Positions 10,247 through 61,068 of a stretch of 64,000 bases of DNA are shown in pieces. This DNA comes from Candidatus Saccharimonadales bacterium (GTDB lineage Bacteria; Patescibacteriota; Saccharimonadia; Saccharimonadales; 2-12-FULL-41-12). The stretch spans positions 3,345-67,344 of the forward strand of contig JBFIJM010000003.1 in the NCBI GenBank assembly GCA_041600715.1, given 5' to 3'. The stretch's first letter is position 1; each line of letters starts with the position of its first letter. Made by a program: the position numbers and the translations under genes. The notes below the pieces were generated by a model. That model saw only the letters and a program-made list of their open reading frames with translations, did no database searches and had not been told where the DNA came from.

Positions 10247-10254
10247 AAGTAGTA

Positions 10255-10263
10255 TTTTTTTTT
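10255..10263 (+). terminator. T9 tract
   Basis: It lies 8 nt after the stop at 10246 and 13 nt before the next ATG. Confidence 0.55.
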
Positions 10264-10276
10264 ATACAATTATATA

Positions 10277-17254: not shown

Positions 17255-17983
17255 ATGCAAGATTCCGAATCTGGAGATTTGGGCAAGCGACCGGATAAAA
17301 AAATTAAATACGAGTGTTGTATATGTTTTACTAACGAAATTGACTCACTGTCTCCATGTGACCATGTATTTTGTCAAGAGTGTATATTTAAATGGGTCAA
17401 AAAGCACGTTTCTTGTCCAATATGTCGTTTTATATTTCACGAGGAAGAGATAATAAATGTACAAATCAATGAATCGCTTCAACAAGACAATGAAGATGAC
17501 GAATCAGCGCGAATCTCCTATTTACCCCCCGGCAAAATTCAAATAACCCCAGACAAACCTGTTGATAAGCCTAAATGTAATCTGCCACCGCAAATGCCTT
17601 TGCCACCGCAAATACCTTTGCCACCGCAAATACCTTTGCCACCGCAAATGTCTTTGCCACCACAAATACCTTTGCCACCACAAATGCAGCTGCCACTTCT
17701 CCCTCGTCAGCTAACCATCCCACCACAGATGCCACCACCACTTCTCCCTCGTCAGCTAACCATCCCACCACAAATGCCACCACCACTTCTCCCTCGTCAG
17801 CTAACCATCCCACCGATATGGGCAAATATCCAGCCACCGTGGGTTGATAGCGAAAATATTTATCGATCGCCCTTCCCTCCGCATCTACCCTATCCCTATC
17901 CATATCCGCCGCAACATTCCGGGTATAGACCTGTACCATCAAACCGAGGTGGTCGCCGTTCGATAATATTTTCCCCGTATTAA
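17255..17983 (+). CDS. C3HC4 RING-finger protein with a long Pro/Gln-rich repeat tail
   Basis: CCICFTNEIDSLSPCDHVFCQECIFKWVKKHVSCPICR. The track start (17246) is a TTG; the first ATG is at 17255. Confidence 0.8.
   Translation: MQDSESGDLGKRPDKKIKYECCICFTNEIDSLSPCDHVFCQECIFKWVKKHVSCPICRFIFHEEEIINVQINESLQQDNEDDESARISYLPPGKIQITPDKPVDKPKCNLPPQMPLPPQIPLPPQIPLPPQMSLPPQIPLPPQMQLPLLPRQLTIPPQMPPPLLPRQLTIPPQMPPPLLPRQLTIPPIWANIQPPWVDSENIYRSPFPPHLPYPYPYPPQHSGYRPVPSNRGGRRSIIFSPY
17585..17815. repeat. in-frame 18-nt (x6) and 45-nt (x2.7) tandem repeats coding PPQ(M/I)PL and PPLLPRQLTIPPQM
   Basis: Direct reading. It generates the antisense shadow ORF 17571-18035. Confidence 0.9.
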
Positions 17984-19089
17984 ATATACATGTTAAATAT
18001 AGGGTTATCATCTTTATCTGGTCTTTGCACGACATCTATTTTTTTGTTTAGTTTCCATACACCGTCTCCACACATGCGAAAATCTTCATATAAATCTGCC
18101 TGAAAAAATCTAAAGGGGTCCGCAGAATTATTAAAATATAATAGTTTCTTAAAGTGCTTGCATTTAGTTGCGTCTTGTGGGTATACAACTTCAACACACA
18201 TTGCGGCACGTTTCTTAGTCGGTTTGCCGTACCCATTCGATGCTCTTGTAAAATTACTAATTGCCGATTGTTCGTCGGCGAAAATGCTATTATGAACATT
18301 TTTCCGAAATTCAGAGTCAATTTCCTTGTCGTTTTGCGCCAATATGACAGTTGTTCCGTTGTAATGGCGAAATTCGTAGAAAATCTCCTTAATTACGGTG
18401 GACTTTTTAACCCAAGTTTTGAATCGACTGGCACAATCATCCAATAATAGGAGACATTGAGGATTGATGTATAGAAATCGAATAATAAGATTTTGTTTTT
18501 TTGTTAATGAAGAGTCTCGAGCAAGAGAATCTTTATGTTTGCTTATGCATATTTTGTAAATCCTGCGAAGTATTGAATCTCTAGTTTCAATAATGGCTAT
18601 CTTTTTTGATTTTTTCTCAGCGATGTTCAATGTATGAGATCGCATCGTATCCTTTAAAGATTTGTCGGCGCCCCGAACAGCTAGGTTGGCAAGTGCTTTG
18701 GCTCGCGTGTCGACAATTTTATCGAAAATAGACTTGAGATTCAGCACATTGTTAACCATATTATAGATGTTAGTGACATTTTTTTGTCTTACCAGGAGCT
18801 TTTGTAGAAAATCGATAGTGTCGTCGACGCTCGTTCCTGGTTTAATACATCGGCTTGGTATTTTATCAGTATATATGCCATTGGCGAAGTTAGTCGGGGC
18901 AATTACGAAAACCAAAGGAATATGATGATTTAAAAGGTACATTATTTCATTAAGAATCGTTGTTTTGCCTGATCCGGTCGGTCCGTATAACACCGTCATT
19001 CTATTCAAATACGTTTTATAGGTGGTATCTAACCATTTAAGTTTGCTTCCATCGGATAACAACAAGTAGTCTTTACCCTGCGTTTCCAT
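17980..19089 (-). CDS. A32-like genome packaging ATPase (ASFV B354L class)
   Basis: Walker A VLYGPTGSGKTT and Walker B LLLLDDCAS. The track start at 19110 is a GTG; the ATG at 19089 is preceded by aataatatacgg. Confidence 0.8.
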   Translation of the reverse strand: METQGKDYLLLSDGSKLKWLDTTYKTYLNRMTVLYGPTGSGKTTILNEIMYLLNHHIPLVFVIAPTNFANGIYTDKIPSRCIKPGTSVDDTIDFLQKLLVRQKNVTNIYNMVNNVLNLKSIFDKIVDTRAKALANLAVRGADKSLKDTMRSHTLNIAEKKSKKIAIIETRDSILRRIYKICISKHKDSLARDSSLTKKQNLIIRFLYINPQCLLLLDDCASRFKTWVKKSTVIKEIFYEFRHYNGTTVILAQNDKEIDSEFRKNVHNSIFADEQSAISNFTRASNGYGKPTKKRAAMCVEVVYPQDATKCKHFKKLLYFNNSADPFRFFQADLYEDFRMCGDGVWKLNKKIDVVQRPDKDDNPIFNMYI

Positions 19090-19154
19090 CCGTATATTAT
19101 TGTATTGCACTTTTATTTATCAGCAATTAAACATATTCCTAACGATTTGGGTAA

Positions 19155-25161: not shown

Positions 25162-25250
25162 GAATGCTAAGTCAAGAACTCAAGAATGCTAAGTCAAGAA
25201 CTTAAGAATGCTAAGTCAAGGACTTAAGAATGCTAAGTCAAGGACTTAAT
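25144..25250. repeat. 22-nt tandem array (gctaagtcaaggacttaagaat, 4.8 copies)
   Basis: Unit 1 is the last five codons plus stop (AKSRT*) of ORF 24739-25161. The array fills the gap to the convergent gene at 25252. Confidence 0.95.
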
Positions 25251-39028: not shown

Positions 39029-42000
39029 ATGCCAAGATCTAAAGGCAATGTTTCTAAATCCCTTAAATCCATACCCAAGGATGACGACGAAACTCGCGAA
39101 GATGTTCATCATATAGTATTTTCCGAGTCTGACACGGATGACGAAATTGATAAACCCGTAAGGAACGAAGTAAAGTCCAGAATTCAAGAGGCTACAAGTA
39201 CGATTTTGAGGATTTTTAGAACATTCTTGAATAAACCTGATTACATTAATCCACCAAAAGACCCATCAACAAACATAGTCGACCGATCAGTGGGAAAATG
39301 TTACAATATACCATCTAGAAAAATACATAAATTCTTCAAATGTCTCGACGAATGTAGACGGACGAATCTATCAATGATGATGTATGAAAAACAATTAGAG
39401 TATTCAGGTATTATGGATGATTTTGATATAGGTCAAGACTGTAGAGTTAGTCAAATTACACATATCCATTTCCACAGATACGCCGTGAGGAAAATCAAAA
39501 ATCTCATCAAGTATGTCGAATTTCCTCTTAACGTCAAATCATTGGAAATATACATTGGGTTTATCCAGAAACCCCGTCCAGTTTTTAAGGATGATAGAAG
39601 CGCGTATTACGATGGGTTCCATGCACTAATCCCAGGTATTCAGCTAACCCGCGCGGCTAAACGATTTATTAACCAAAAATTTATTGAAGACGGCGATGTT
39701 CGAAGTATATTTCATGATTTTACACTCGCTGACGGAATTACTAAAGACGATTTGTTCGATATTAATAGTGCTCATGTTGGTGTACATTTTGTCGGATGTA
39801 GCAGTAAACCAGGCAAACCTGCGTATAAATTAAAATGGGTGTATCGGTGTAAAGTCACTATCGATCCAGATGATGTTGTACCTGTTCAATGTAATGACGT
39901 GTTTTTAGAGTCGAATTCTGTAAACATATGTCATGAATTTTCCCTAAACTGGGAGCGAAGCGAAGAGAAGGGTGGTATTATTCGTAAAAAGCAGTATAAC
40001 TTAAAAGAGGAATACATGAAGTATATCTCTAACGATGGGAAGACAAGAGTTGACGATGTTGAAAACGAATTCTACGACGAGGGGTTGTCTCCTATAGATA
40101 ACGAACTGTCATTACTAAAATCTCGAGACCCTGAGGCTGGCTTTATTAAGAGTATGTTAGACATTCTCAATCCAGAAAGAGCTATTGAGTATAATGAATG
40201 GTGGGAGATTATGCGAATCTTAGCCAAGCTATCTCCATCGTATAAACCTTTGGCTAATTACTTCAGTCAAAAAAGTAAAAAACATGCCGAAGCTCCTTCA
40301 TATGAATCAATGTTTGACAAAAAATGGGAGGAAGCGCTTGCATGTAAAAGTAAAGTTACAATTGGCACACTACATTTCATAGCTGAGCGGGATAACCCAG
40401 ATGCTTACAAGGAAGTACGCAGCAGAAGTATATATAGCATATTGCATCGACAAATATACACACAACGATCCGAAGGTATCCTTGAGCATAATGTAATAGC
40501 CAAACTATTGTTTAATATGATTGGGCATAAATTTGTACATGATAAACCAGACGGGATGGCGCGGGGGAATTGGTATGAATTTATAATTGAAGGAGACCGT
40601 ATGAAAAAGGGGGAAATCTATAAATACAGACCATATGATGGTAGTAAACCTAAATCTATGCTGCGATACATCTCTGACCAGCTCCCACCGTTCTTTGAGA
40701 AGACTTTGATGAAAATTAAAGACTCTTATGAGGCAGCCGATGGGAACTTAGCGAAATACTATTCGCAAGTATACAAAAATTTTCAAAGATCATGCAGAAA
40801 CTTGGAGAATCGAACATATAAAAAAGCCGTCGTTGAAGAGTGTGAGAGTGAATTTGAGATGGTTGGATTCTCTGATTCCCTAGACACAGACCCATTAATT
40901 CGAGGTGTTGGTAATGGTATTTTATCTCTAAAAGATAAGCCCAAGCTCATCACTGGATTCCACAGCTACAAAGTTTCAAACTACACATCTACTGAGTTTA
41001 AACCATATAACCCATATGACCCGATTCAGAAAAAAGTATTAATAGCGCTTCGCAATTTATTCCCTGATGACGAGCCCGATTCGCATAATTTTACAATGTG
41101 TTACTTTGCAAGTACTTTGGATGGTCGCCCAAAAGATAGTGTATTTTTGATGATGGTGGGTGGTGGTAGTAATGGTAAATCCTTTCTTATTGAATTACAT
41201 AAAGGTGCCATTGGTATGCATTATGGTATGACTATGGACCCTTCATTCATCTTGGCGTCAAAGGGTAGAGACTCTGAAGCCGCAGCCCCATTACTTTTGG
41301 CGTTACAAAAAGTCAATTGGGTGGCTTTCTCAGAGACGGACCGACTTGCTGTATTGAATATTAGTAAGATTAAAAGGCTGACTGGTGGAGATACACTTTC
41401 TGGAAGGTATAACTATGGGAATAAAAACATTAATTTTAAACCTAAATGCCATTATACTTGCTGCTCTAATCATGATTTTGAGATTGATGGAACTGATCAT
41501 GGTACTTGGAGAAGAATGCTTTATGTAATTTTCAAGATGAAGTTCTGTCAACTGTGGAAGGGAGAGACTTATGATCCACAAAATATATATGAAAGGGTCG
41601 CTGACCCCGATATGGGAAAGGGTTGGACAGAAGATCCAGACATACTCGCTGGTTATTTTAGCATTATGTCACATTACTATCATAAACTTCGCACAAAATA
41701 CGGAGGGAGTGTAATAAATGTTCCGCACCCACATATTAAGGCAGATACTGAGAATTTTCGCAATCGTCAGGATAAAATTAACAACTTCTTATGTACTTAT
41801 TTAGTTAAATTACCTGAGGTAGAAACTGAAGAGACGATGGATAAAATGGCCAAAGCCAAAGCAGAGGTCAAGGCAGAGGCCAAAGCAGAGGCCAAAGCAG
41901 AGGCCAAAACAGAGGCCAAAGCAAAAGCAAAAGAAGAGCCAAAGAAAAAAATCTTTAGGATGCAATCAATGTCGGAGATTGCAGAAAAATACATCAAATG

Positions 42001-42721
42001 GCATGAAAGTCAATATCCAGGGGCTAACAAAAACTACTTGAAAGGATTGATTAGCCAATTGGAAAATTCACAAATCTCCAAGTATCTCAAGCGTACACGT
42101 CGAGGCAAATTTCTGATCGGCTACCGTATATTGAATATTAATGAGGCAAAGGAGGACGATGAAGAATATTTTTCGAAGACAGCATTTAGCGATAAAAAAT
42201 ACGAACATGGTGTTGTTTCAGAGAATGCTGAACAATATTACAAAAGACTCTGTAAGGAATATGATGAAAACTGCGCCAGAGAGAAAGCCGCTAAGTCTAA
42301 GGATAGTAAAAGTAAAAAAAATAGTACTTTTACCCCTGCGAGCTCAAATACCTTTGGACCAGATTTTAGAGTTGTACGTAGGAAGGATAATATTGACGCT
42401 GATGAGGATTCTGGTTCAGATATTGATCTTACGTTAGCGGCTAAAAAAAATCCGAGTCTTGCTGAACAAAGACAAAGAAGACGTCAGTTAAACCTTAGCA
42501 GTTTAAATAAATCAGTATTAAAAACCGATCCTAAATCAGGAAGGTCGATGCTTACATTCGACCCTATTGACGCAGCTAAAAAAGCAAACGTTCACGGTCG
42601 TAAGATTGTACAGTCAATGATGTTTAACGATGACGATGACGACGATGAGGATGAGGATGACGACGATGACGATGACGATGAGGATGAGCTTGTGATTGAT
42701 CTTGATACAATAATTGTATAA
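39029..42721 (+). CDS. D5-type primase-helicase (ASFV C962R class)
   Basis: AEP primase motifs MDDFDIGQD and DGFHALIPG. SF3 helicase Walker A VGGGSNGKS and Walker B VAFSETD. It carries an (AEAK)n insert at 41849-41932 and a poly-D/E tail. Confidence 0.85.
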   Translation: MPRSKGNVSKSLKSIPKDDDETREDVHHIVFSESDTDDEIDKPVRNEVKSRIQEATSTILRIFRTFLNKPDYINPPKDPSTNIVDRSVGKCYNIPSRKIHKFFKCLDECRRTNLSMMMYEKQLEYSGIMDDFDIGQDCRVSQITHIHFHRYAVRKIKNLIKYVEFPLNVKSLEIYIGFIQKPRPVFKDDRSAYYDGFHALIPGIQLTRAAKRFINQKFIEDGDVRSIFHDFTLADGITKDDLFDINSAHVGVHFVGCSSKPGKPAYKLKWVYRCKVTIDPDDVVPVQCNDVFLESNSVNICHEFSLNWERSEEKGGIIRKKQYNLKEEYMKYISNDGKTRVDDVENEFYDEGLSPIDNELSLLKSRDPEAGFIKSMLDILNPERAIEYNEWWEIMRILAKLSPSYKPLANYFSQKSKKHAEAPSYESMFDKKWEEALACKSKVTIGTLHFIAERDNPDAYKEVRSRSIYSILHRQIYTQRSEGILEHNVIAKLLFNMIGHKFVHDKPDGMARGNWYEFIIEGDRMKKGEIYKYRPYDGSKPKSMLRYISDQLPPFFEKTLMKIKDSYEAADGNLAKYYSQVYKNFQRSCRNLENRTYKKAVVEECESEFEMVGFSDSLDTDPLIRGVGNGILSLKDKPKLITGFHSYKVSNYTSTEFKPYNPYDPIQKKVLIALRNLFPDDEPDSHNFTMCYFASTLDGRPKDSVFLMMVGGGSNGKSFLIELHKGAIGMHYGMTMDPSFILASKGRDSEAAAPLLLALQKVNWVAFSETDRLAVLNISKIKRLTGGDTLSGRYNYGNKNINFKPKCHYTCCSNHDFEIDGTDHGTWRRMLYVIFKMKFCQLWKGETYDPQNIYERVADPDMGKGWTEDPDILAGYFSIMSHYYHKLRTKYGGSVINVPHPHIKADTENFRNRQDKINNFLCTYLVKLPEVETEETMDKMAKAKAEVKAEAKAEAKAEAKTEAKAKAKEEPKKKIFRMQSMSEIAEKYIKWHESQYPGANKNYLKGLISQLENSQISKYLKRTRRGKFLIGYRILNINEAKEDDEEYFSKTAFSDKKYEHGVVSENAEQYYKRLCKEYDENCAREKAAKSKDSKSKKNSTFTPASSNTFGPDFRVVRRKDNIDADEDSGSDIDLTLAAKKNPSLAEQRQRRRQLNLSSLNKSVLKTDPKSGRSMLTFDPIDAAKKANVHGRKIVQSMMFNDDDDDDEDEDDDDDDDDEDELVIDLDTIIV

Positions 42722-42825: not shown

Positions 42826-43887
42826 TTACTGAGGAAGGGACGCAACGAGATCATTCTTGCGCTTTTTCAAATCATTAAGTTGCTGCGGAATAGCTGCGAA
42901 TTTTGATTGGAGTAATGTGAAACCAGACTGAGTCAAGTTATATTGAGCGGTAACACTTTCGAGTTTTCGTTCAGACACCGCAAGAATACCAATGTGGTAT
43001 TGTCTTCTCGCAGTCACCACCAACTCGGCCTGAGTAACGGCTGCCTGAGCGTTAACATATGCTTGACTGCTCCAAAAGGTGTTCTTCAGCGTATTCAACT
43101 CATCGACAGACTGTTTGAGCAAATACATAGCCTGATCAGACTTACCAAACAGAGCAATGCCGTGTGCGAGCAATGAGCTCGCATTGGCCATATTTTGGAT
43201 ACACTTGACGTACTCATCGCTCGTTTGAAACTGAACCAACATGTTATGCAAGACAAGCTGAGCCTCATCGACGTCGCCGATACACTCGCGCATAACCTGA
43301 TCGCACGTCAAGAGAAGACGATTGTGTTTGCGTTCAGCAGACTTCCTATCATGTGCATGTCGGTTCAAGGCATCGCGGATTTCTTCCGATACAGCTTGCT
43401 GAATATACACGTTCTTTATGTCGGTTTCCAGGCTGGTTAACTGGCGCCAGACGACACAAGACTGAATGGGCAAAGTTGGTGGTGCATTTGGAACAGGGGA
43501 GCGAGGAAGAGGAGGAGGTGATTGAGAGCGAGGAAGAGGAGGTGATTGAGAGCGAGGAAGAGGAGGTGGTAGACGGTGGGAGGTCCGGAGTAAGTCAAGA
43601 AAGTGCTTAACATCGCTAGCAACACTCGCATGGATAGGATATTTCCTATCGATTGTGTTAATGTCCTGAGTATGTGCGATCGAAGAGGAGATCGGAGAGG
43701 AGATCGGAGAGGGTATGGAAGGAGAATATGTCGCTACACGAGACAAATCCAAAATAGATTTGGCGAGTTCCGCGCGTTTTTCCTCGGAACTTCGGGAATC
43801 TTCGCCATCCGGTACCTTACCGACCGGAGGCGTGGCGGCATGGCCAGAAATAAATTTCTGGTCACCGAAAGCAGCTTGAGCAGACAT
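42826..43887 (-). CDS. hypothetical helical protein with a Pro/Ser repeat (PPLPRSQS); leader family; GC-rich
   Basis: The track start is a TTG at 43923; the ATG at 43887 gives MSAQAAFGDQKF... The extended TTGA module lies upstream. Confidence 0.6.
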   Translation of the reverse strand: MSAQAAFGDQKFISGHAATPPVGKVPDGEDSRSSEEKRAELAKSILDLSRVATYSPSIPSPISSPISSSIAHTQDINTIDRKYPIHASVASDVKHFLDLLRTSHRLPPPLPRSQSPPLPRSQSPPPLPRSPVPNAPPTLPIQSCVVWRQLTSLETDIKNVYIQQAVSEEIRDALNRHAHDRKSAERKHNRLLLTCDQVMRECIGDVDEAQLVLHNMLVQFQTSDEYVKCIQNMANASSLLAHGIALFGKSDQAMYLLKQSVDELNTLKNTFWSSQAYVNAQAAVTQAELVVTARRQYHIGILAVSERKLESVTAQYNLTQSGFTLLQSKFAAIPQQLNDLKKRKNDLVASLPQ

Positions 43888-43921
43888 CACTAATAAAGTG
43901 GTCCGGTAAGCGTTAATTAGC

Positions 43922-43951
43922 AAAAAAAAATCAATTTTTTTTTAAAAAAAA
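43922..43951 (-). promoter_or_regulatory. T8 + A9-TTGA-T9 (sense) terminator and promoter module
   Basis: The plus strand reads aaaaaaaaatcaatttttttttaaaaaaaa, between the stop at 43981 and the ATG at 43887. Confidence 0.55.
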
Positions 43952-43980: not shown

Positions 43981-44832
43981 CTAAGAACGATGTATCGCAA
44001 GGAACGGAGTTTTTAGCAGCTCATTATAAAGCTTTTGTTTTTCTGCGAGACGTTGCTGGGCTTCCGATTGCCTAACTTGAGCGTCCTCCGAACAACTGTT
44101 GCATCTTCGAAATGCAGCCAGGTCACGGCCTACCTCTGCATTGAGCTCGGTTATGCGTTTTTGGTGACGATCATTGGCATCGGTCAAAAATCCCTTCGCT
44201 AACACCACAGCATCATGGGCAGTCACAACACGCGGGTCAGTGTCATTGCCGCAGCATTGCTGGGCACGTTCTAAGAATCGAATATCGCCATCTAGCTTTG
44301 CTTGAAGTTTTTTTAACTCTTCGGAACAAACAGCTGGGTAATTAGTTAGCTTAGTTTGAGAACTATTGAGAACATGCGCGGCTGCAACCAGTTCCTTCTG
44401 ACGGGCCATAAAATGTTCAGTACAATTGCACTCATCTAAATGGGCATACCGCATGGCTCGCAATGCATTCGCAACTTGCACCCCGAACCCTTTGATTTCC
44501 TGGAGGGTTGGGATATCAGGAGTTGCGGCGATGGACGACGTGGTGGGGGACGACGTGGGGGAGGACGACGTGGTGGGGGACGACGTGGGGGAGGACGACG
44601 TGGGGGAGGACGACGTGGTGGAGGACGACGTGGGGGGAGAATTGGAGTGTTTGCGATCTAATCCAGAGTCTTGGTCAGTTCGCACGATATTTCGTGCGAT
44701 ATTCAAATCTTTCTGAAGATCTGCTCCCCGGGTAGTGATAGGAGGACGAGTGCTTGGGTCAGCACCCGTGGAAGCAGGTCGCGCGGAGGCGCTACCGAGG
44801 GTCGAAGGCTGAACAATGGTGAGACTTGCCAT
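43981..44832 (-). CDS. hypothetical helical, Cys-containing protein with an (SSPT) repeat; leader family; GC-rich
   Basis: MASLTIVQPSTLGSASARPASTGADPSTRPPITTRG.. The ORFs 44426-44735 are shadows of the repeat. Confidence 0.6.
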   Translation of the reverse strand: MASLTIVQPSTLGSASARPASTGADPSTRPPITTRGADLQKDLNIARNIVRTDQDSGLDRKHSNSPPTSSSTTSSSPTSSSPTSSPTTSSSPTSSPTTSSIAATPDIPTLQEIKGFGVQVANALRAMRYAHLDECNCTEHFMARQKELVAAAHVLNSSQTKLTNYPAVCSEELKKLQAKLDGDIRFLERAQQCCGNDTDPRVVTAHDAVVLAKGFLTDANDRHQKRITELNAEVGRDLAAFRRCNSCSEDAQVRQSEAQQRLAEKQKLYNELLKTPFLAIHRS

Positions 44833-46021: not shown

Positions 46022-46639
46022 CTACATAAATTTTTTACTCCCAATGTACCGAGACATGATGCGATAATTCATGTAGCTACATACTAATATTTTTGCCAGG
46101 GCAAAGTCGATCTGTATGATCGCTATCCAGATAGCTATCATGTAGTACATTGCATCGGATATAAAATTACCATTCGCAATAATAAATACACCAGTGCGAG
46201 TGTAGTCAGATATTATTTTTTGCTTGTGGTCGTATAGGTTATTGGTCATCCAAGGATAAATTGTTTCTTCCCTGTATGTTTCGAACGCTGAGAAAATCGC
46301 CAAAAATATATGCGTTGCTATGTATATGGGCCATGTATCAACCTTTAACCATAAAATGTGGAGATCGGGTCCCGGACCAAATCGGACATATGTCGAATTT
46401 AGATCCGACCGCATCATGAATGGGATAAATATAAGTACAATAAGTAGTAGGTTGAATATTGTAATATTGACATATTTGGTTTCTTTTTTTATAGAGGAAT
46501 GATCATTGAACTGACCTGATTGAGTATTAATTTGAATAGCTACGTCGTCTGATCCATCAGAATATTCCCCACTTGAGTGTCTAGACCCCTGGTTACTTGA
46601 GCTAGGGATTGGTGACCATTCTCTTTCAATATCAGACAT
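46022..46639 (-). CDS. multi-pass membrane protein
   Basis: 205 aa with four hydrophobic segments. Confidence 0.6.
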   Translation of the reverse strand: MSDIEREWSPIPSSSNQGSRHSSGEYSDGSDDVAIQINTQSGQFNDHSSIKKETKYVNITIFNLLLIVLIFIPFMMRSDLNSTYVRFGPGPDLHILWLKVDTWPIYIATHIFLAIFSAFETYREETIYPWMTNNLYDHKQKIISDYTRTGVFIIANGNFISDAMYYMIAIWIAIIQIDFALAKILVCSYMNYRIMSRYIGSKKFM

Positions 46640-46650
46640 TATTATGGTGA

Positions 46651-46720
46651 GTTGAATGTTTAATGTTGAATGTTGAATGTTGAATGTTGAATGTTGAATG
46701 TTGAATGTTTAATGTTGAAT
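46651..46720. repeat. heptamer array (gttgaat / gtttaat, 10 units) in the 5-prime leader region of gene 46022-46639
   Basis: Direct reading. It lies between the AAAAATTGA motif (46726-46734, minus sense) and the ATG at 46639. Confidence 0.95.
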
Positions 46721-46725
46721 GTCTT

Positions 46726-46738: not shown

Positions 46739-47395
46739 CTAAATAATAAGAATATAAATAAGCACATTCTTATAAACAATACTAATGGGTAAGTCAATAT
46801 CTAGTACCTGTCGTTTTTCCATTTGCCGCATGGGGCAGTAATCAACATTGTCCAATTGGATTTGGGCTTCTTCAAAGGTTTCGCGGATAGAACATTGCAT
46901 AAGGCTCTCAAATTTTTCTATCTTACCATTACTTGTCGTACCAATATCGATGTTTTTGTATTTTTTTATATGTCGAACTGGAGTCTCGACCTGGCAGAGT
47001 AATCGGTAATTATCTGGGATCTTGTTCAATTGTGGATACAATTTATCATGAAGATACTTCATAACAAACCCAAGTGACACCTTTGAAGTGGTGTTGATTT
47101 GTTTAGCTTGCCTAATCTTGTGGTCCGGGATAAGGGACGAAATACGTTTCGAGTCGCCTAAATCCTCCAGTCTCACAGATAAAAGGCTGTCGATCTCTTT
47201 GGATTTCTGAAAATGGTCAACGGCCATCTCTGAGAATTCTCTGGGTGCAATAACAAGTGTAGATACTGCTTTAAACCTTAGCCTCTTCTCTTCAGAGAAT
47301 GTGTTTGGCTTTTTCGAATTCTCGTAGTTCATGTCAATAAACAGACTTTTTAGTCGGTAGTTATAGTACGAACTATATATACGATAGGTATTCAT
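46739..47395 (-). CDS. Nudix hydrolase, likely an mRNA-decapping type (ASFV D250R/g5R, vaccinia D9/D10 class)
   Basis: Nudix box GKIEKFESLMQCSIRETFEEAQI fits Gx5Ex7REUxEExGU except that G is replaced by Q. Confidence 0.65.
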   Translation of the reverse strand: MNTYRIYSSYYNYRLKSLFIDMNYENSKKPNTFSEEKRLRFKAVSTLVIAPREFSEMAVDHFQKSKEIDSLLSVRLEDLGDSKRISSLIPDHKIRQAKQINTTSKVSLGFVMKYLHDKLYPQLNKIPDNYRLLCQVETPVRHIKKYKNIDIGTTSNGKIEKFESLMQCSIRETFEEAQIQLDNVDYCPMRQMEKRQVLDIDLPISIVYKNVLIYILII

Positions 47396-47425: not shown

Positions 47426-47437
47426 AAAAAATGAAAA
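47426..47437 (+). promoter_or_regulatory. AAAAAATGAAAA variant motif
   Basis: It lies 25 nt upstream of the ATG at 47463; this is a weaker variant (TGA instead of TTGA). Confidence 0.3.
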
Positions 47438-47462
47438 GCCTCCTCTTATATACACTTGAATA

Positions 47463-48239
47463 ATGCCAGACGTTAAAATTTATACTAAAACCGGCGATAC
47501 AGGTAAAACTACTCTATTCGGTAATGATAACAAATATTCTAAATCCGACAGTGTATTCGATTTAATGGGAGGCATTGACGAAGTTAATGCAGGACTAGGC
47601 CTACTTACATATCAAGTTCGGGCATTAAAACAATACTGGAATAAACATACAATATACTTGTTAGGCCTAATCATATTCTGCGGATTCGCTTCTTGCTGTA
47701 TATCACATATATATACTGGCAAAATCGACCCTTCATATTTAACACCTATTGTATTGATGTGGTTTGCAAGTATTTTTGTCTTTGAGTACAGTAGCTGTCA
47801 GTCAAAGAAATTTACAAAAATAGAAGATGTACTATTAATGATTCAAGAGAAAAATGTTAATCTTCTAAGTCATATTAGTAATCCTGACCGTGTTCGGTTC
47901 ATAGGTGGTGCTGAAATCGTCAAGATAATGGAAGAAGAAATTGACACGATAACTGCGATACTTCCAAAATTAACTAATTTTATCCTGGTGTATAAATCGA
48001 AAGAGTCTGCTTGGTGCAACGTTACACGTACAATTGTTCGTCGAGTAGAACGAGAACTTTCTAGATATTGTCTTGAGCACAAATCGTTGAACACTGAATG
48101 TCTGCCATATATGAACCGCATGTCTGATTATCTATTCACTGTTGCCAGATGTATTGATAATGATCAGTGGTCGCCGCCGACTAACTATTATCATGCTGTG
48201 TCTGGACGCAATGGAAAGAGTGTTAAAAAAAATAAGTAA
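47463..48239 (+). CDS. PduO-type ATP:cob(I)alamin adenosyltransferase (MMAB-like) with a hydrophobic insertion of about 50 aa
   Basis: KIYTKTGDTGKTTLFG, GGIDEVNAGLG, LPKLTNFIL, TRTIVRRVERE and YMNRMSDYLFTVAR match the family blocks. The insert is IYLLGLIIFCGFASCCISHIY...IVLMWFASIFVF. Confidence 0.75.
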   Translation: MPDVKIYTKTGDTGKTTLFGNDNKYSKSDSVFDLMGGIDEVNAGLGLLTYQVRALKQYWNKHTIYLLGLIIFCGFASCCISHIYTGKIDPSYLTPIVLMWFASIFVFEYSSCQSKKFTKIEDVLLMIQEKNVNLLSHISNPDRVRFIGGAEIVKIMEEEIDTITAILPKLTNFILVYKSKESAWCNVTRTIVRRVERELSRYCLEHKSLNTECLPYMNRMSDYLFTVARCIDNDQWSPPTNYYHAVSGRNGKSVKKNK

Positions 48240-48259
48240 TTTAACTGATTTATTTTTTT
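48225..48259. terminator. A8 ... T7 bidirectional module at a convergent junction
   Basis: A8 at 48225-48232 serves the minus gene and T7 at 48253-48259 serves the plus gene. Confidence 0.5.
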
Positions 48260-48260
48260 C

Positions 48261-49799
48261 TTAGCTGGGTTCCGGTGCTTGTTTGGGAACACGACCCGAC
48301 GGACGAGAGCTCTTTTTCTTCGATGCCGCGACTGATTCAGCCGACGCAATCGATCGGGGTTGTTCGATGCCATCCTCAAACCACTCTGGAGCTTCGGATT
48401 GACTAAAGAAATGGTCAGTCGAAAAGTCCCCAGTGCGTGCGTTGTGTACGTGATAGTCCACCTGAATTCCGTCTTCAGGACATTCATCAGATGCATATGA
48501 ACTTTGGTTGATGGACTCAGCTCCCATAGTACTGAGTGTTTTATTACCTTTCTTCCACTTAGTAAATGCATCGTCGTCAGGCCCAACTTCCTTAATATTT
48601 TCCTTTTTCTTCCGCGCGATACGCTTTTGCATGAGATCCTTACCCAATCGGACGTCCCGTTCTTGCTGTTTGAAGATTTCTTCAAGCACTTGCGTCTTTT
48701 CGTTAAAGAATCGCATGTTCTTCCTAACTTTTTTGAAGGGGGCAATAATGTTCCATTTACCAGAATGCGCCTTGAAAATTTCTGCCGAAACCTCTGATTT
48801 ATGTTTAGCAATAAATTTATCAGCAGCATCATCATCGTCATGCCAGTCATATGGATTAACTGCTGTTTCAAAGTCAGGTTTATCGTTATAAATATCAGTA
48901 ACAACCCCCCGGATCTCCTCAAAATTTACCTCTTGGTAGTATCGCCACCTGTGAAAAATATCATGTGGAGGAATCATATTCGTAGTAGTCTCACGAACTC
49001 TATCATCTTTCTCGGTCGACCCGGCAACGATGGCAGTTGATGTTGTAGGTGATGAAACCTGCTTTTTCTTGGGCGGCGATCGTACCTTGACTGATTTATC
49101 GGGCGTGGTTGAGGAGGCTGAGGAGGCTGAGGAGGCTGAGGCGGCTGAGGCGGCTGAGGCGGACTTCCTAATTTTTTCTTTAGCTTCATGTCTACGCATG
49201 GTCTCCTTGAACTTCGGATCACGCCTTTTCTCCTTAGCAATAGCCAGTTTCGCAGCTGGAGTATCCAGTAGAGTGCGTTCCGCGTCAGATGGATTGGGTA
49301 GATAGGATGATCGAACATGTTTTTCCGGATCATATTGAAACAAACTCCCGAGAAATTCCTTAACGATACACCGCTTTTGCATCTGCTTCCAATTTTGTTT
49401 ATATTCCTCAAGAACCTTTCCTTTTACCTTAATCTTTCCTTCTTTATCTTTTGGAGGGTCGATTAGTGTCGGATCCTTATTATATTGTTCGACCGGTACC
49501 ACAGTTAAACCGTCAGGTACTCCCCACTCGTCGTTCATTCTGTTGATAAATGCAATGAGAGATGTCATAAGAAACTTCTCTTTGTATTTCTTATCCATGT
49601 CAACAAAAGAAAAGGTAAGTACTTTATCACTACCCTGAATCGTCCTACCATAAGGATTAATTTTTTTCCTCAACGATCGAACAACGTCATCTGGCATTTT
49701 AGCCAAGTTCTCCGGAGTAATCTCATTAAGTAAAGTCGACAACTCTTCCTCATCTTGTTTGGGGGTCCGAGCGACTTTTGTCTTCTTTACTTCGCTCAT
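48261..49799 (-). CDS. hypothetical protein (512 aa) with an (SA)n tract
   Basis: Long ORF. The same-strand alternative-frame ORFs 48191-48922 and 48974-49411 are judged spurious. Confidence 0.65.
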   Translation of the reverse strand: MSEVKKTKVARTPKQDEEELSTLLNEITPENLAKMPDDVVRSLRKKINPYGRTIQGSDKVLTFSFVDMDKKYKEKFLMTSLIAFINRMNDEWGVPDGLTVVPVEQYNKDPTLIDPPKDKEGKIKVKGKVLEEYKQNWKQMQKRCIVKEFLGSLFQYDPEKHVRSSYLPNPSDAERTLLDTPAAKLAIAKEKRRDPKFKETMRRHEAKEKIRKSASAASAASASSASSASSTTPDKSVKVRSPPKKKQVSSPTTSTAIVAGSTEKDDRVRETTTNMIPPHDIFHRWRYYQEVNFEEIRGVVTDIYNDKPDFETAVNPYDWHDDDDAADKFIAKHKSEVSAEIFKAHSGKWNIIAPFKKVRKNMRFFNEKTQVLEEIFKQQERDVRLGKDLMQKRIARKKKENIKEVGPDDDAFTKWKKGNKTLSTMGAESINQSSYASDECPEDGIQVDYHVHNARTGDFSTDHFFSQSEAPEWFEDGIEQPRSIASAESVAASKKKSSRPSGRVPKQAPEPS

Positions 49800-49867: not shown

Positions 49868-51100
49868 ATGAGTACCATCGAGAATCTCCATCATAATATT
49901 ACATCAAGGTTCGTTGTGCTCCAATCCATTGTCGACCTCTTTGAAACACATGGTCTTGAAAATAAAAGGGTAAAAAAGAAATTGGAAAAATTAATCGACG
50001 TATATAACAAAGGTTCTATCGTTATTTTGTCAAAATATCATGTTGATCAAGACGTTAATAGTCTAGAAAACTATCAAATATTTGTAAACGAGGAAAACTT
50101 CCACAATAAGTTGGAGCAAATTTACAAACATCTCAATGATGAAAATCTACATGACAACCAAGATTTGAGAAAACTAAGGGCCCAATATGAATCATATGTT
50201 ACATATAAAAATAACGAATATAAGAATAAATATTCAACATGTACATGCGGAACAAAGATGGTTATCAAGTCAAATACAAGTGAATTATTATGTATTGCAT
50301 GTGGAGAAACAAAAAATCTAAAGGGTACTGTGTTTGAGGATGATCAATTTTACATGCAGGATGGACGTCCTAAAAATAATTCATACGACGTCACTGGACA
50401 TTGCGAAAAATGGTTGGAAAAAATACAAGCCCGAGAACCTGCACAAATTCCCGAGTCCGTTATTATTACTGTGAAAAAATGTATTCGGGGAGATAAAATC
50501 AAAGATCTAGGGAGTATCAAATGTGAAAATATCAGGGAGTACCTGCAAGAAAAAAAGCTAGCGAACTACTACAATCACGCACCGTTAATTCGTAAAAAAA
50601 TCACTGACATCTCGCCACCCCAATTAACCGACGAAGAATTTCAATTAACTATCTTATATTTTGCTATATTTATCAAAATCTTTGAACGGATCAAACCTAA
50701 AGGCATGACTAACTGCTCGTATCATCCGTATTTTATCTATAAAATTCTTGAGCAAATTATCGACCGATCCGATAAAATGATGTTAGAGGAATCCGATGAT
50801 GACTCTGATTATGAGTCAGACCTCGAAGGTAACCATGGTGATACAATCGGCAATAGTCTTGATGACCTCGAATGGGAACGGTCATTGACCGTCCCTGTCA
50901 TCAAAAAGCTTACTCCCAGGAAGAAACGCGTCCCATTTCCCCTCAAGTATTCGAAGAGAAAAAAAGAAATCTTAAGCTGTATACATCTGCAATCAAAATC
51001 GACTCTTATCGAGAAAGATCAAATTTTTCGGGAGGTATGTGATGATATTCCTAAGTTTACCTATGTGGCGACCAATAAAAATAAACATAACCAATTTTAA
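49868..51100 (+). CDS. VLTF3-like late transcription factor (vaccinia A2L / ASFV B385R class)
   Basis: Zn ribbon CTCGTKMVIKSNTSELLCIACGE followed by the conserved helical core (..NCSYHPYFIYKILEQI); tagatatac abuts the ATG. Confidence 0.7.
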   Translation: MSTIENLHHNITSRFVVLQSIVDLFETHGLENKRVKKKLEKLIDVYNKGSIVILSKYHVDQDVNSLENYQIFVNEENFHNKLEQIYKHLNDENLHDNQDLRKLRAQYESYVTYKNNEYKNKYSTCTCGTKMVIKSNTSELLCIACGETKNLKGTVFEDDQFYMQDGRPKNNSYDVTGHCEKWLEKIQAREPAQIPESVIITVKKCIRGDKIKDLGSIKCENIREYLQEKKLANYYNHAPLIRKKITDISPPQLTDEEFQLTILYFAIFIKIFERIKPKGMTNCSYHPYFIYKILEQIIDRSDKMMLEESDDDSDYESDLEGNHGDTIGNSLDDLEWERSLTVPVIKKLTPRKKRVPFPLKYSKRKKEILSCIHLQSKSTLIEKDQIFREVCDDIPKFTYVATNKNKHNQF

Positions 51101-51101
51101 C

Positions 51102-51178
51102 AATCCAGATATTCTTCTAATTAATCCAGATATTCTTCTAATTAATCCAGATATTCTTCTAATTAATCCAGATATTCC
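51102..51178. repeat. 21-nt tandem array (aatccagatattcttctaatt, 3.7 copies)
   Basis: The distal copy is the last codons plus stop (..NIWIN*) of the minus gene 51159-51488. Confidence 0.95.
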
Positions 51179-56970: not shown

Positions 56971-58353
56971 ATGCAGTTTTACAAGGAAGAATTCTTTGAA
57001 GACCTGGTTCTTAAGAATAATGTCTACAAGGATATTATTAACGACGCCTTGGAAGTCGTTAAGAGATTTATTATCGAGCGTAAGTTGATATTGGTCGGCG
57101 GAATGGCCATCGACATGGCAATGAGAGCTCGTGGATCAAGGTTATATGAAAACGATGATATGTTGCCCGATTATGATTTCCTATCTCCCGACTTTCATAA
57201 TGATGCATACGACCTGGCTCTTATCCTTGATAAAAAGAAATTTCCACAAGTACAAGTCATAAATGCAAGACATATGTCAACTATGCGGGTACGAGTAAAT
57301 TTTGAAGTAGTCGCTGACATAACATACATACCAAAAAGCATGTTTGACAAACTTCCATTCATCAAATATCGAGGGTTTAAGGTTGTACATCCACATTACC
57401 AGATTATTGACCAACACGTATCGTTATCTAGACCATATGAAGGCGCGCCTCAAGAAAATATAACAGGGGGTCGTTGGAAAAAAGATATGACCAGGCATAA
57501 TATTATAGTTTCTGTTTATCCCATTGATAATAGTGCTAATAATTCACCCGATGGATCAAAAATACTATTTAAATTTCCCTCCGCTTTATTAAAAGACCAG
57601 TGTGTCGGTGGATTCGCCGCATTAGAATACTGGAACCGAAAAGCTACCCTTATGGGGGCTACCGGATTTCCTAACACGATTAAACTAGGCAAAATGTTTG
57701 AATGTCTAGCTTATGAGTTTATACTATACAGCGACGATCCTGAACAGATCGCAAACACTTTTTTAAAATTATTAAATGTCGGACCAAAGATTAAAGAGTC
57801 AAAGATAAAGCTTGTTCGGTATAAAAGTCTTCTAGAAAAAGTACCACGTAGTATACATGTTGAAGGTAAAGGCATAATAATATTCGATACATACGCGAGC
57901 AAACTCGCTGCACATAAGAGTAAGCTTCATAATATGTATTTTGCTAACCCACAAACTATCATGGTACATATGCTAACTGAATGGGTCGTTAATAAAAGTG
58001 TACAACATCTACAGGGGTACTTACTGGCAAAAAAATTAGTATCCTGGGCAAGCGTTGAATTTGGCAAGGGAAAAAATACGAACTTATACATGCCATTTTT
58101 ACCAACTCATGAAACATATGGAGAAGTTAACTGGTCACATAATTATATCCTTTACAGGAAGCAATTTGTTGATATGATTGATGGAAAAAAAACCCCCCGA
58201 CCAACACCGCCACCATTATATAATGAAAATCTAAAAAAATCAATCGCTGAGATGCGTAAATTTAAACCAAGCGAGTCCGAATTATATCAATTTGACGGTG
58301 GTCCTGTCGAAGGAAACAAGATATTTGAAAGGGTCAAACTTGCAGGGGAATAA
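56971..58353 (+). CDS. Pol-beta-superfamily nucleotidyltransferase, probable poly(A) polymerase catalytic subunit (ASFV C475L class)
   Basis: LILVGGMAIDMAMRARGS...LPDYDFLSP gives GG ... DxD. The size is 460 aa and the gene neighbours the TFIIB and RPB6 genes, as in ASFV. Confidence 0.5.
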   Translation: MQFYKEEFFEDLVLKNNVYKDIINDALEVVKRFIIERKLILVGGMAIDMAMRARGSRLYENDDMLPDYDFLSPDFHNDAYDLALILDKKKFPQVQVINARHMSTMRVRVNFEVVADITYIPKSMFDKLPFIKYRGFKVVHPHYQIIDQHVSLSRPYEGAPQENITGGRWKKDMTRHNIIVSVYPIDNSANNSPDGSKILFKFPSALLKDQCVGGFAALEYWNRKATLMGATGFPNTIKLGKMFECLAYEFILYSDDPEQIANTFLKLLNVGPKIKESKIKLVRYKSLLEKVPRSIHVEGKGIIIFDTYASKLAAHKSKLHNMYFANPQTIMVHMLTEWVVNKSVQHLQGYLLAKKLVSWASVEFGKGKNTNLYMPFLPTHETYGEVNWSHNYILYRKQFVDMIDGKKTPRPTPPPLYNENLKKSIAEMRKFKPSESELYQFDGGPVEGNKIFERVKLAGE

Positions 58354-59290
58354 TAACATATTTGCTGGTTTTAGGATTTAGCAAAATCTGAATCTGCCCT
58401 GGACCGTTAAAATGTTTATTAAGAGCTAGTAAATGCATGTTTAATAAATGTTGATGGTGTAATATAAACTCGCAAGAAATCTTTTGAAAACTGCTTACAG
58501 CATCCATATCAAGCCAATGTGTATTATTGGATATAAAGTCTTCACTCAATGAATTATACTTAGGCACAATTACCTCCATAGATTCATGTGGTGATTCAGT
58601 TGCATCACCAATAATACCACATCCACCTCGTATACTTTGACCTTTCCAATAATTGCGGTAGCGACTAATAAAATATTCGGGTAGCGTACAATATTTTACA
58701 AGCAAATCCCAATATACTTGGTGGGTGTTTTCCTCTATAAATTGAAGAGTCAATGTATTAATCTGATATTTGCATATTAATTTCCAATTCATACATTGAC
58801 CATATGCTTTGATTAAATGTAAAGGAACAGTTTGAAATTGTAATAATGTATTGCAGTTGAATTTACCCCAGTACTTTTCGATATTCGTACTTGATATTTT
58901 TTTATTTCTCGCGTACCAATTCCAGTCGATAACTGAAGTATCTGAGAAAATATCAATAAAATCATCGGTATAATTTATCATTTTAACCCCGCAGTATTTT
59001 AGAACATGGCTGGAAGCTATCTCATTCTTAAATGTGTACAGAATAAAAGAATCTTTCACATAATTCGCCATCAAATATGCATCCCAATCCATCAAATGGG
59101 CGCACTTAATAATAACATCAAAACTCAGTGGTTGGCCTGAAGTAGTCTTCCAATCTAATTTATCCATGTATTGTAATATCGCCCCGCCAGAGAGGGGGTA
59201 TTTTGATATATATTCCCACCCGTAATACGCAAGAATGTCATTTTCAATATCTTTACATAGGAGTGTATTTCTTAGAGTAACTGGGTACAT
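58334..59290 (-). CDS. repeat protein with about 30-aa Trp-containing units (..FI....h(D/N)W...)
   Basis: Recurrent units MDKLDWKTTSGQPLSFDVII, LMDWDAYL, VIDWNWYARNKKISSTNI, CMNWKLICKYQINTLTLQFI, VYWDLLVKYCTLPEYFI and HWLDMDAVSSFQKISCEFI. Confidence 0.6.
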   Translation of the reverse strand: MYPVTLRNTLLCKDIENDILAYYGWEYISKYPLSGGAILQYMDKLDWKTTSGQPLSFDVIIKCAHLMDWDAYLMANYVKDSFILYTFKNEIASSHVLKYCGVKMINYTDDFIDIFSDTSVIDWNWYARNKKISSTNIEKYWGKFNCNTLLQFQTVPLHLIKAYGQCMNWKLICKYQINTLTLQFIEENTHQVYWDLLVKYCTLPEYFISRYRNYWKGQSIRGGCGIIGDATESPHESMEVIVPKYNSLSEDFISNNTHWLDMDAVSSFQKISCEFILHHQHLLNMHLLALNKHFNGPGQIQILLNPKTSKYVIIPLQV

Positions 59291-59420
59291 ACTATATATC
59301 AGCCGATTATACTATATATCAGCCGATTATACTATATATCAGCCGATTATACTATATATCAGCCGATTATACTATATATCAGCCGATTATACTATATATC
59401 AGCCAATTATACTACATCAG
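59291..59420. repeat. 20-nt tandem array (actatatatcagccgattat, 6.5 copies) abutting the ATG at 59290
   Basis: Direct reading. In gene sense each unit ends ..gatatatagt, and the proximal unit supplies the TATA-like box before the ATG. Confidence 0.95.
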
Positions 59421-59868: not shown

Positions 59869-61068
59869 TCATCCCCGTCGGCCGTCTTTGAGACGAGCAA
59901 CAAATCCCTCGATAGCAGTGGTTAGAGGATTTGTGTCGGGCTGAACAGTCTGTTGCGAACCTTCTTCCACAATTGCATCGTAGAAAATAGTAGTCACGGC
60001 ATTACCAGTTTTTTCAAACATCTTGTATTGTAATTGTCCATTATCAGCCCATGAAATTTCAACAGCTCCCCCCTGAGATCCGATATAAGAAACTGGGTAT
60101 TTGGTAGAAGATGCTTGCTCGGATAGAAAATTATCCTTCAACACCGTAGTGATGTTAAGTCGAGTGTTGTTAACAAATATGTTTAATGTCGGGTAGTAGT
60201 CGTCCATGTCTGGATAATTAGCGAAAAGTTCGCCGTTTACAAAGGTCGCGGACCCCCTGAACTTCCCCCTCATTTTGACAACTTCAGGATGAGGTTTATC
60301 AGAACTGCTTACGTGTGTTGGCGCATCTTCTCCTGGCACGGTATCGCCACCAACAATACCTCGTCGTCCACGCGCAGCAACCGTGTCATCGGGTAAAAGT
60401 TCCAATTGTTTTCGAATACCATATGGCAAATCGTTCATATGTTTTGGGTTATTAAGCAGACCTGTAGGGGGAACTTTGTTTACCTTCCATGATTTAGAAG
60501 CGTCTTCCTTACTACTTACCTGCAGAGTTCCAACGTCACTAAGAGTTAATTCTAGGGGAGTGGCCGTTTCATCAGAGACTAGCGCAACGATAGGATAGTT
60601 TTTTGCCGGCGAAACAGTGTCTACTCCGTCAACAGTTACCAATACTTGACGAGGCTGTCCCTCGACCTCATCCAATAATACAATATCAACTAGATGTTGC
60701 TCAGAGGAGGATTCGACTATACCAGTATTAACGGTGTTTGGACCATCGCCAGCAACCCCTTCTAGAGTTTCGGCGTTCTTCTGCCTGACAGTAAATCCTG
60801 CCAACAGAGATCCTGATGATCCAATAACGTAAGTCCCCTCTAAGTCTGCGACTCTAGGGTCAACATCTGTTTTAGCTGTTTTAAATAATATGATGATAAC
60901 AACGACTATGCATACCGCAATAATAAGATATGCCCAAAATTTGCTATCTTTCTGTTCGGTATCAAATGGTGCCGACGGTGCCGACGGTGCCGACGGTGCT
61001 GATGCGTATGGGTTGGTCGGCGGTGGTGCCGATACTAAGGGTGAGTATGTCGGGTAAGAATCTTCCAT
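59869..61068 (-). CDS. single-pass membrane protein with a Pro-rich N-terminus and a large C-terminal domain
   Basis: PPPTNPYASAPSAPSAPSAP, then FWAYLIIAVCIVVVIIILF, then a domain of about 330 aa; tatctatatagtt lies before the ATG. Confidence 0.6.
   Translation of the reverse strand: MEDSYPTYSPLVSAPPPTNPYASAPSAPSAPSAPFDTEQKDSKFWAYLIIAVCIVVVIIILFKTAKTDVDPRVADLEGTYVIGSSGSLLAGFTVRQKNAETLEGVAGDGPNTVNTGIVESSSEQHLVDIVLLDEVEGQPRQVLVTVDGVDTVSPAKNYPIVALVSDETATPLELTLSDVGTLQVSSKEDASKSWKVNKVPPTGLLNNPKHMNDLPYGIRKQLELLPDDTVAARGRRGIVGGDTVPGEDAPTHVSSSDKPHPEVVKMRGKFRGSATFVNGELFANYPDMDDYYPTLNIFVNNTRLNITTVLKDNFLSEQASSTKYPVSYIGSQGGAVEISWADNGQLQYKMFEKTGNAVTTIFYDAIVEEGSQQTVQPDTNPLTTAIEGFVARLKDGRRG

Follow-up and report, generated by a model that had tools for sequence, protein, structure and literature searches.

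A giant-virus PduO/MMAB-type cobalamin adenosyltransferase homologue with a hydrophobic insertion predicted to form a membrane hairpin

The 64,000-nucleotide (nt) stretch of DNA analysed here (contig JBFIJM010000003.1, positions 3,345–67,344; hereafter the window) is, by its gene content, a giant-virus (Nucleocytoviricota) core region, and it encodes a homologue of the PduO/MMAB-type cobalamin adenosyltransferases that carries a hydrophobic insertion between its first two helices. Membership in this family is secure, and the insertion itself, its lack of any counterpart and its composition are directly observed. PduO enzymes are common in giant viruses; the hydrophobic insertion is new. The reading that we favour, with a probability of roughly 0.5, is that the protein is a membrane-anchored, cytosol-facing, trimeric ATP:cob(I)alamin adenosyltransferase gained by a giant virus. 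We know of no membrane-integral PduO/MMAB-type (corrinoid) adenosyltransferase reported before, and if the hairpin anchors an active enzyme this would be the first. It would also show how nature can turn a soluble helical-bundle enzyme into a membrane-bound one by lengthening two of its own helices. The gene and the family blocks of its product are:

47463..48239, + strand: PduO/MMAB-type ATP:corrinoid adenosyltransferase (EC 2.5.1.17) homologue gene; complete open reading frame (ORF), ATG start, 258 amino acids (aa)
aa 5–20: family block KIYTKTGDTGKTTLFG
aa 38–46: family block IDEVNAGLG
aa 167–175: family block LPKLTNFIL
aa 193–198: family block RRVERE
aa 218–229: family block NRMSDYLFTVAR

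An earlier note on this DNA had assigned the protein to the PduO/MMAB type from these blocks, all of which lie where it had placed them, and had proposed a Pfam comparison. The assignment is borne out: PF01923 (Cob_adeno_trans) matches with E=2.7e-37 and 128.9 bits, well over its gathering score of 24, the insertion dividing the match in two. TIGR00636 (PduO_Nterm, an NCBIfam equivalog domain) scores 106.7 bits (E=1e-30; cut-off 108.45), with its alignment also split there. A phmmer search of PDB sequences matches 37 chains, including L. reuteri PduO (LrPduO; 3ci1), human MMAB (2idx), and homologues from B. cereus, B. subtilis, M. tuberculosis and archaea. The AlphaFold2 model, built from a 67-sequence alignment (mean pLDDT 88.9, pTM 0.83), contains helices at residues 30–85, 90–139, 149–166, 180–205 and 213–234, and the modelled fold is the PduO-type five-helix bundle. 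All 50 of the 50 best Foldseek matches of the model in the PDB are PduO/MMAB-family chains, led by LrPduO and human MMAB (TM-score normalised to target 0.7–0.9). The closest sequences are only about 40% identical, and the protein forms a long branch.

The insertion of roughly 60 aa follows helix 1, whose last residues are …GLGLLT (aa 44–49), and precedes the …L..IQ block (Q128). Its parts are:

47610..47807, + strand: lineage-specific insertion between helix 1 and helix 2 (aa ~50–115), delimited by alignments with homologues
47649..47717, + strand: hydrophobic segment 1, TIYLLGLIIFCGFASCCISHIYT (aa 63–85), a predicted transmembrane helix; Kyte-Doolittle (KD) value 2.1, helical in the AlphaFold2 model
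47718..47732, + strand: hairpin turn GKIDP (aa 86–90), the sole non-helical residues between AlphaFold2 helices 30–85 and 90–139; net charge 0
47733..47783, + strand: hydrophobic segment 2, SYLTPIVLMWFASIFVF (aa 91–107), a predicted marginal transmembrane helix; KD value 1.45

Conservation was counted in an alignment of 188 family sequences (the window protein and 187 others), in which the connector from G46 to Q128 is 83 aa long in the window protein compared with a median of 20 and a next longest of 59. A hydrophobic connector is present in none of the 187 other family members, and a phmmer search of 1.84 billion representative proteins with the insertion and short flanks (75-aa query) matches only the window protein itself. 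The two-helix hydrophobic insertion that the earlier note had described as foreign to normal PduO enzymes is thus real and unique; its two quoted stretches, IYLLGLIIFCGFASCCISHIY (aa 64–84) and IVLMWFASIFVF (aa 96–107), are present, and its placing of about 50 aa at nt 47640–47800 agrees with the bounds from the alignments.

The 19-residue KD mean peaks at 2.1 (aa 63–81) and 1.45 (aa 88–106). Segment 1 has no charged residue in its 23 aa and a summed Hessa-type free energy of insertion (dG) of -0.6 to -2.0 kcal/mol, segment 2 a dG of ~0 to +1.5 kcal/mol over 15–17 residues; Eisenberg mean hydrophobicity (<H>) and hydrophobic moment (muH) are 0.63 and 0.09 for segment 1 and 0.66 and 0.12 for segment 2. 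By contrast, the helices of the bundle proper are amphipathic (moment 0.30–0.46, mean hydrophobicity -0.36 to 0.19). The polar flanks YQVRALKQYWNKH (aa 50–62) and YSSCQSKKFTKIED (aa 109–122) contain three Lys/Arg apiece. AlphaFold2 runs helix 1 unbroken through aa 30–85 and helix 2 through aa 90–139, with pLDDT 84–89 over the insertion, so that the insertion appears to prolong both helices by about 35 residues each into a hairpin jutting from one end of the bundle. Each hairpin arm would consist of a basic stalk of ~13 residues and a hydrophobic tip of 17–23 residues (DSSP string, 1.5 Å per residue).

Two non-amphipathic hydrophobic helical segments (the second marginal) and a short turn are the elements of a two-pass hairpin, and the two spans, the three Lys/Arg in each flank and the net-neutral turn are compatible with its topology. 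Because the number of hydrophobic segments is even, both halves of the split catalytic domain would lie on the same side of the membrane. Composition, topology logic and the model together argue well for tethering by the hairpin.

An assembly or frameshift artefact, which the earlier note had named as fatal to its proposal, was looked for and not upheld. Under such an artefact the true protein would be an ordinary soluble PduO, and the extra 198 nt would stem from an intron, a repeat expansion, compensating frameshifts or misassembly; this reading could draw on the fact that the insertion is carried by one genome only and on the wealth of short tandem repeats in the window (58 TRF rows), but is highly improbable. 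The coding frame is open across the 66 inserted codons whereas all five alternative frames contain several stops each in that stretch, and about 180 nt cannot be gained by frameshifts. Tandem-repeat expansion is rejected, as 0 of the 58 TRF rows overlap the gene, and so is internal duplication, the best diagonal having 23/45 matches against a codon-shuffled median of 24. A mobile-element origin is rejected likewise, since a repeat search of the window finds neither direct nor inverted repeats flanking the insertion, and blastn and tblastn find no second copy above chance in the window. No RNA family in Rfam, introns included, reaches significance, so an intron or structured RNA is rejected. 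The GC content of the insertion (34%) is close to that of the remainder of the gene (36%), and its composition and flanking charges resemble those of a designed hairpin. The identical sequence is present on a separately assembled Logan contig (L001; SRR29257383), 100% over 4452 nt, which may or may not derive from independent reads.

The residues that bear on catalysis are mostly kept, with a cluster of substitutions after the corrin-displacing phenylalanine:

47475..47513, + strand: N-terminal ATP-binding motif KIYTKTGDTGKTT (aa 5–17); I6, Y7, T8, G11 and D12 invariant in the 188 sequences; aligns with LrPduO and other solved chains
47979..47999, + strand: FILVYKS (aa 173–179); corrin-displacing Phe F173 (LrPduO F112) kept, following P-G/S-G replaced by V-Y-K
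48027..48053, + strand: helix-4 catalytic cluster R189..R193 R194..E196 R197; R189, R193 and E196 invariant in the 188 sequences
48114..48131, + strand: NRMSDY motif (aa 218–223; S221 corresponds to human Ser217); N218, R219, S221 and D222 invariant

Every column that is 100% invariant in the alignment is retained in the window protein, and KIYTKTGDTGKTT satisfies the ATP-binding pattern I-Y-T-K/R-x-G-D-x-G-x-T. Residues were mapped through the LrPduO alignment together with the PDB entries and titles of its F112, R132 and D35 variants, and human roles were taken from PMC9262797. LrPduO D35, F112, R128 and R132 correspond to D39, F173, R189 and R193, all conserved; human MMAB R186, R190, R191, E193, R194 and S217 correspond to R189, R193, R194, E196, R197 and S221. 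The human residues coordinate ATP and adenosylcobalamin (AdoCbl) or sit in the trimer core, and the role of Ser217 is described in the same source (PMC9262797); the equivalent of the trimer-core residue R191 is retained as R194. Enzymes of this type are homotrimers whose active sites lie where subunits meet.

The column of F173 has F in 187/188 sequences. The near-invariant P-(G/S)-G that follows it, and the His nine residues further on, are absent from the window protein: position 176 is V (P in 180/188), position 177 is Y (G in 111/188, S in 54/188; human Ser174), position 178 is K (G in 171/188) and position 186 is N (H in 183/188). Human MMAB S174L is pathogenic and causes cblB disease (PMC9262797). 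Positions 176–178 also vary in a minority of family members. Because these four near-invariant columns near F173 are changed, though the invariant ones are kept, the protein is probably, but not certainly, fully competent in catalysis.

Among solved relatives, LrPduO (3ci1, 2nt8, 3gai) has the same Pfam family, the same five-helix bundle (Foldseek TM-score normalised to target about 0.8), the ATP motif and the four mapped catalytic residues. It differs in being a soluble protein of 188 aa with a short alpha1-alpha2 connector where the window protein has its ~60-aa hydrophobic hairpin, and in having P-G-G rather than V-Y-K after the Phe. Human MMAB (2idx, 6d5k, 6d5x) is a homologous trimeric adenosyltransferase with the six active-site or core residues listed above in common; it is soluble, and an N-terminal leader directs it into the mitochondrial matrix (PMC9262797), whereas the window protein has no N-terminal extension, has the internal hydrophobic hairpin, and has Tyr177 in place of human Ser174.

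Viral relatives show that the alpha1-alpha2 connector, which spans 13 to 59 aa among the homologues compared, is to judge from these sequences an insertion hot spot in viral family members. Giant-virus PduO proteins of 170–178 aa (P0005, P0016, P0039; L018, L029, L034) are virus-encoded members of the family and among the closest sequences; they differ in having a minimal 13-aa connector and the neighbours of the gene module described below, the window gene having neither neighbour but a hairpin of its own. Other viral PduO proteins (L010–L015, L017, L039) have insertions at the same helix 1–helix 2 site, but these 52–59-aa inserts show no sequence relationship to that of the window protein and are Gly/Pro/Tyr-rich and polar, with a maximum KD of 1.05 or less. 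Their connectors (…YSAPGAGAGVYRDKACIMPPEYTGPPLYYEWF…) measure 59 aa in L010–L012, L014 and L015, 52 aa in L017 and 54 aa in L039. The BFVD structure entries A0A481Z1S5 (Mimivirus LCMiAC02, 263 aa), A0A7S9SUL2 (Virus NIOZ-UU159) and A0A482MHX5 (a Nodularia phage) are also virus-encoded members of the fold, with only 16–19% identity to the window protein; the TM-score of A0A481Z1S5 is as low as 0.55, and the additional residues of this protein therefore do not overlay the hairpin.

The earlier note had considered a B12-activating enzyme unusual for a large DNA virus, a view contradicted by the databases. A pattern scan of IMG/VR recovers 333 stretches encoding PduO relatives; 18 of the best 80, to which all locus-level counts refer, have names marking them as giant-virus metagenome-assembled genomes (GVMAG). 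BFVD, moreover, already annotates the proteins from Mimivirus LCMiAC02, Virus NIOZ-UU159 and the Nodularia phage as 'cobalamin adenosyltransferase'. A literature search found no relevant papers on PduO in giant viruses or phages, and no match for the window protein was found in PHROGs.

The closest homologues (P0005, P0016, P0039; about 40% identity over the core) lie on giant-virus-like contigs in a module in which a 95–97-aa half-aquaporin gene is directly upstream of the 170–178-aa PduO gene and a class II ribonucleotide reductase (RNR) gene is 3–8 kb away. The half-aquaporin matches Pfam MIP, has the motif GGH(Y/F)NPAVS and about three transmembrane helices; the RNR is of the AdoCbl-dependent class II, with an ATP-cone and an intein. 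Four such loci are:

L002, 2439–10519: half-aquaporin, PduO and class II RNR module
L086, 9675–18649: the same module
L088, 9684–18405: the same module
L089, 9684–18112: the same module

The module is also present in L007, L009, L013, L018, L020, L022, L023, L025, L027, L029, L034–L036 and L043. A class II RNR gene lies within about 10 kb (the flanks taken) of PduO in 22 of the 80 IMG/VR loci as well as in L002, L086, L088 and L089, and a half-aquaporin gene is directly upstream of PduO in 14 of those IMG/VR loci; no description of the module was found in the literature. A second IMG/VR group (L044, L055, L063, L065, L066, L067, L068, L077 and L040; PduO mostly at about 9986–10580) has a more distant class II RNR, ~33% identical to that of L002, the gene for which stops no more than about 600 nt short of a downstream gene for a 187–195-aa PduO. 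PduO and class II RNR therefore became linked, or have stayed linked, in at least two viral lineages. The L086 contig, giant-virus-like and 185 kb long, also encodes a Cas12f1-like TnpB/OrfB_IS605 protein (1079–2449, − strand) beside a MerR-resolvase gene.

PduO beside class II RNR and a half-aquaporin implies a B12-dependent supply of dNTPs with its own cofactor activation in some giant viruses, and if so, viral replication would be tied to B12 availability in aquatic protists. This module may be a more consequential lead than the window gene itself. Within the window, tblastn finds no match to class II RNR, and Pfam scans of the ORFs show neither an RNR nor any other AdoCbl-dependent enzyme; the search for a client enzyme covered these 64 kb. 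One half-aquaporin candidate in the window (E=0.046) is spurious, as it lies on the strand opposite a genuine Zn-ribbon gene. No similarity links the insertion to the half-aquaporin.

The earlier note had also called for a phylogeny to find the donor, and none is identified by it. In a neighbor-joining tree of 50 taxa with 100 bootstraps, no sister group of the window protein has more than 21% support; the sisters are mostly sequences from viral contigs, with Bacteroidota in 3% or fewer.

Put together as a mechanism, the hairpin would insert as a two-pass membrane element with both ends cytosolic, and the trimer would be held by six helices at a host or virus-factory membrane. The anchored enzyme would adenosylate reduced cobalamin with ATP to give AdoCbl in the cytoplasm; as host MMAB is mitochondrial by its leader peptide, a cytoplasmic virus factory would otherwise be without this cofactor. 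The client would be a virus-encoded class II RNR outside the window, and by analogy with other giant-virus PduO genes such an RNR elsewhere in the genome is the probable client. The linkage of PduO to a half-aquaporin in the sister clade is, by analogy, independent and indirect support for giant-virus PduO working at a membrane.

Several observations weigh against an anchored, active enzyme. The insertion is known from one sequence, so that no conservation or covariation backs a function, and its second segment is short (17 aa) and marginal alone. The TIGR00636 score falls 1.7 bits under the cut-off, and the substitutions P176V, G/S177Y, G178K and H186N beside the corrin-binding Phe could mean that activity is altered or lost. 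The 64-kb window is without a class II RNR, another AdoCbl-dependent enzyme or a half-aquaporin, and the donor tree gives no sister group of the protein more than 21% support.

Two other accounts of the protein were weighed. A permissive connector might simply have been decorated with a soluble stalk, the three hairpins of the trimer packing against one another as a six-helix bundle that touches no membrane and matters little for function. The site tolerates insertions, as the unrelated and non-hydrophobic ones of L010–L015, L017 and L039 show, and AlphaFold2 gives a regular helical hairpin; yet both segments are hydrophobic on all faces, aa 63–85 are without charge, and a six-helix bundle would still leave about half of each helix facing water. 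None of the family's other insertions is hydrophobic, and we regard a soluble stalk as quite unlikely. The fold may instead have been repurposed, as a membrane-anchored protein that binds ATP and/or cobalamin and performs no adenosyltransferase work but has a cobalamin-sequestering, hand-off or unrelated role. Such a change of function would fit the four substitutions, one of them at the position where Leu in the human protein causes disease, the long branch (about 40% identity at best) and the lack of an AdoCbl client in the window. Nevertheless all strictly invariant residues are kept (the ATP motif, the D39–R189 pair, F173, R193, E196, N218, R219, S221 and D222), which would not be expected had catalysis been lost, and positions 176–178 vary in some family members anyway; this account is unlikely. 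The membrane hairpin on an adenosyltransferase is the best available reading, one drawn from a single sequence. A wider proposal, that giant viruses run their own cytoplasmic, membrane-associated B12 activation, one clade by means of the half-aquaporin, PduO and class II RNR and this virus by means of a fused hairpin that would put AdoCbl synthesis at the membrane through which cobalamin enters or on which the virus factory forms, is doubtful at present.

The earlier note had taken the DNA for that of a large DNA virus, and the core genes of the window agree. These, and the immediate surroundings of the PduO gene, are:

651..2135: major capsid protein (MCP)
17980..19110: A32 packaging ATPase
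39029..42721: D5-type primase-helicase
46739..47395, − strand: NUDIX-like gene (weak NUDIX match), left syntenic flank; 44% identical to L090 gene 7535–8149
47426..47439, + strand: promoter-like 14-mer AAAAAATGAAAAGC, a variant of AAAATTGA, 23 nt upstream of the PduO ATG
48226..48259, no strand assigned: AT-rich palindrome over the PduO stop codon, where two genes converge; inverted repeat I2 with arms of 17 nt that are 82% complementary and abut without a spacer
48261..49799, − strand: conserved 512-aa gene, right syntenic flank, followed by VLTF3; 48–49% identical to L090 gene 8437–9816 (459 aa)
49868..51100, + strand: VLTF3 (PF04947)
56971..58353: poly(A) polymerase catalytic subunit

The window also carries TFIIB-, TBP-, Rpb6- and Rpb9-like genes and genes for an ERCC4 nuclease, a resolvase, a ubiquitin-conjugating enzyme (E2) and an FtsJ methyltransferase. 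The virus is probably Imitervirales-like. Its PduO gene has a GC content of 35.6%, similar to the surroundings, and is bona fide viral given its core-gene flanks, this matching GC and the 14-mer that it shares with another window gene. The palindrome over its stop codon is a possible transcript-end hairpin.

No close relative of the virus is present in the databases, the best identities being 56% for MCP and 38–44% for VLTF3, and IMG/VR scans with the single PduO protein and with VLTF3 yield no close relatives. The nearest comparison is a 101-kb ENA contig (L090), with identities of 47% for D5, 44% for the NUDIX-like gene, 48–49% for the 459-aa gene and 37% for VLTF3. On that contig no PduO separates the NUDIX-like gene from the 459-aa gene, the two being immediate neighbours, and a second relative (the contig with VLTF3 homologue P0241) has no PduO near VLTF3. 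From these two relatives it follows that PduO was gained at this position in the present lineage, or lost in both of the others. L003 (JGI Ga0114971_10000035) shares no sequence with the window. The search with the window VLTF3 gave no 100% self-match, unlike those with PduO and MCP, the best match being 38%; the Logan contig L001 encodes the same 410-aa VLTF3 gene.

The 14-mer AAAAAATGAAAAGC also occurs upstream of the TBP-like gene (6093–7286, − strand), and may act as a promoter of the PduO gene. The related motifs AAAATTG/AAATTGA are upstream of 7/44 window genes (~0.7 expected). The octamer AAAATTGA, which we take to be the mimivirus early promoter element, shows an enrichment of about 8-fold over the 70 nt preceding window genes (e.g. 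27181, + strand; 30896, 42826–43923, 43981–44832, 51488 and 52054, − strand; 62887, + strand), and TATATA(G)T-like motifs are likewise enriched upstream of window genes. The adjacent genes 29441–30208 and 30267–30896 (both − strand) have a near-identical upstream block, …AAAA(A/T)TGATTTTTTTTGC(G/A)(T/A)TAGTAATGCCTGACG, which may be a duplicated promoter or leader, and GCCTGAC is found upstream of three genes (0.15 expected), the third being 59869–61068 (− strand).

Two genes upstream of PduO, a 205-aa ORF (46022–46639, − strand) without a Pfam match has several long hydrophobic stretches and probably encodes a multi-pass membrane protein. The short tandem repeats of the window are unusually abundant and include arrays at 3090–3155, 25144–25249, 46651–46722, 51102–51177 and 59289–59414. 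Perfect intergenic arrays lie just upstream of genes, with a 7-mer repeated 10 times before 46022–46639 (− strand) and a 20-mer repeated 6.3 times before 58334–59290 (− strand), and many arrays within coding regions are in frame with a period divisible by 3 (e.g. 8567–8666, 20655–20769 and 27554–27671).

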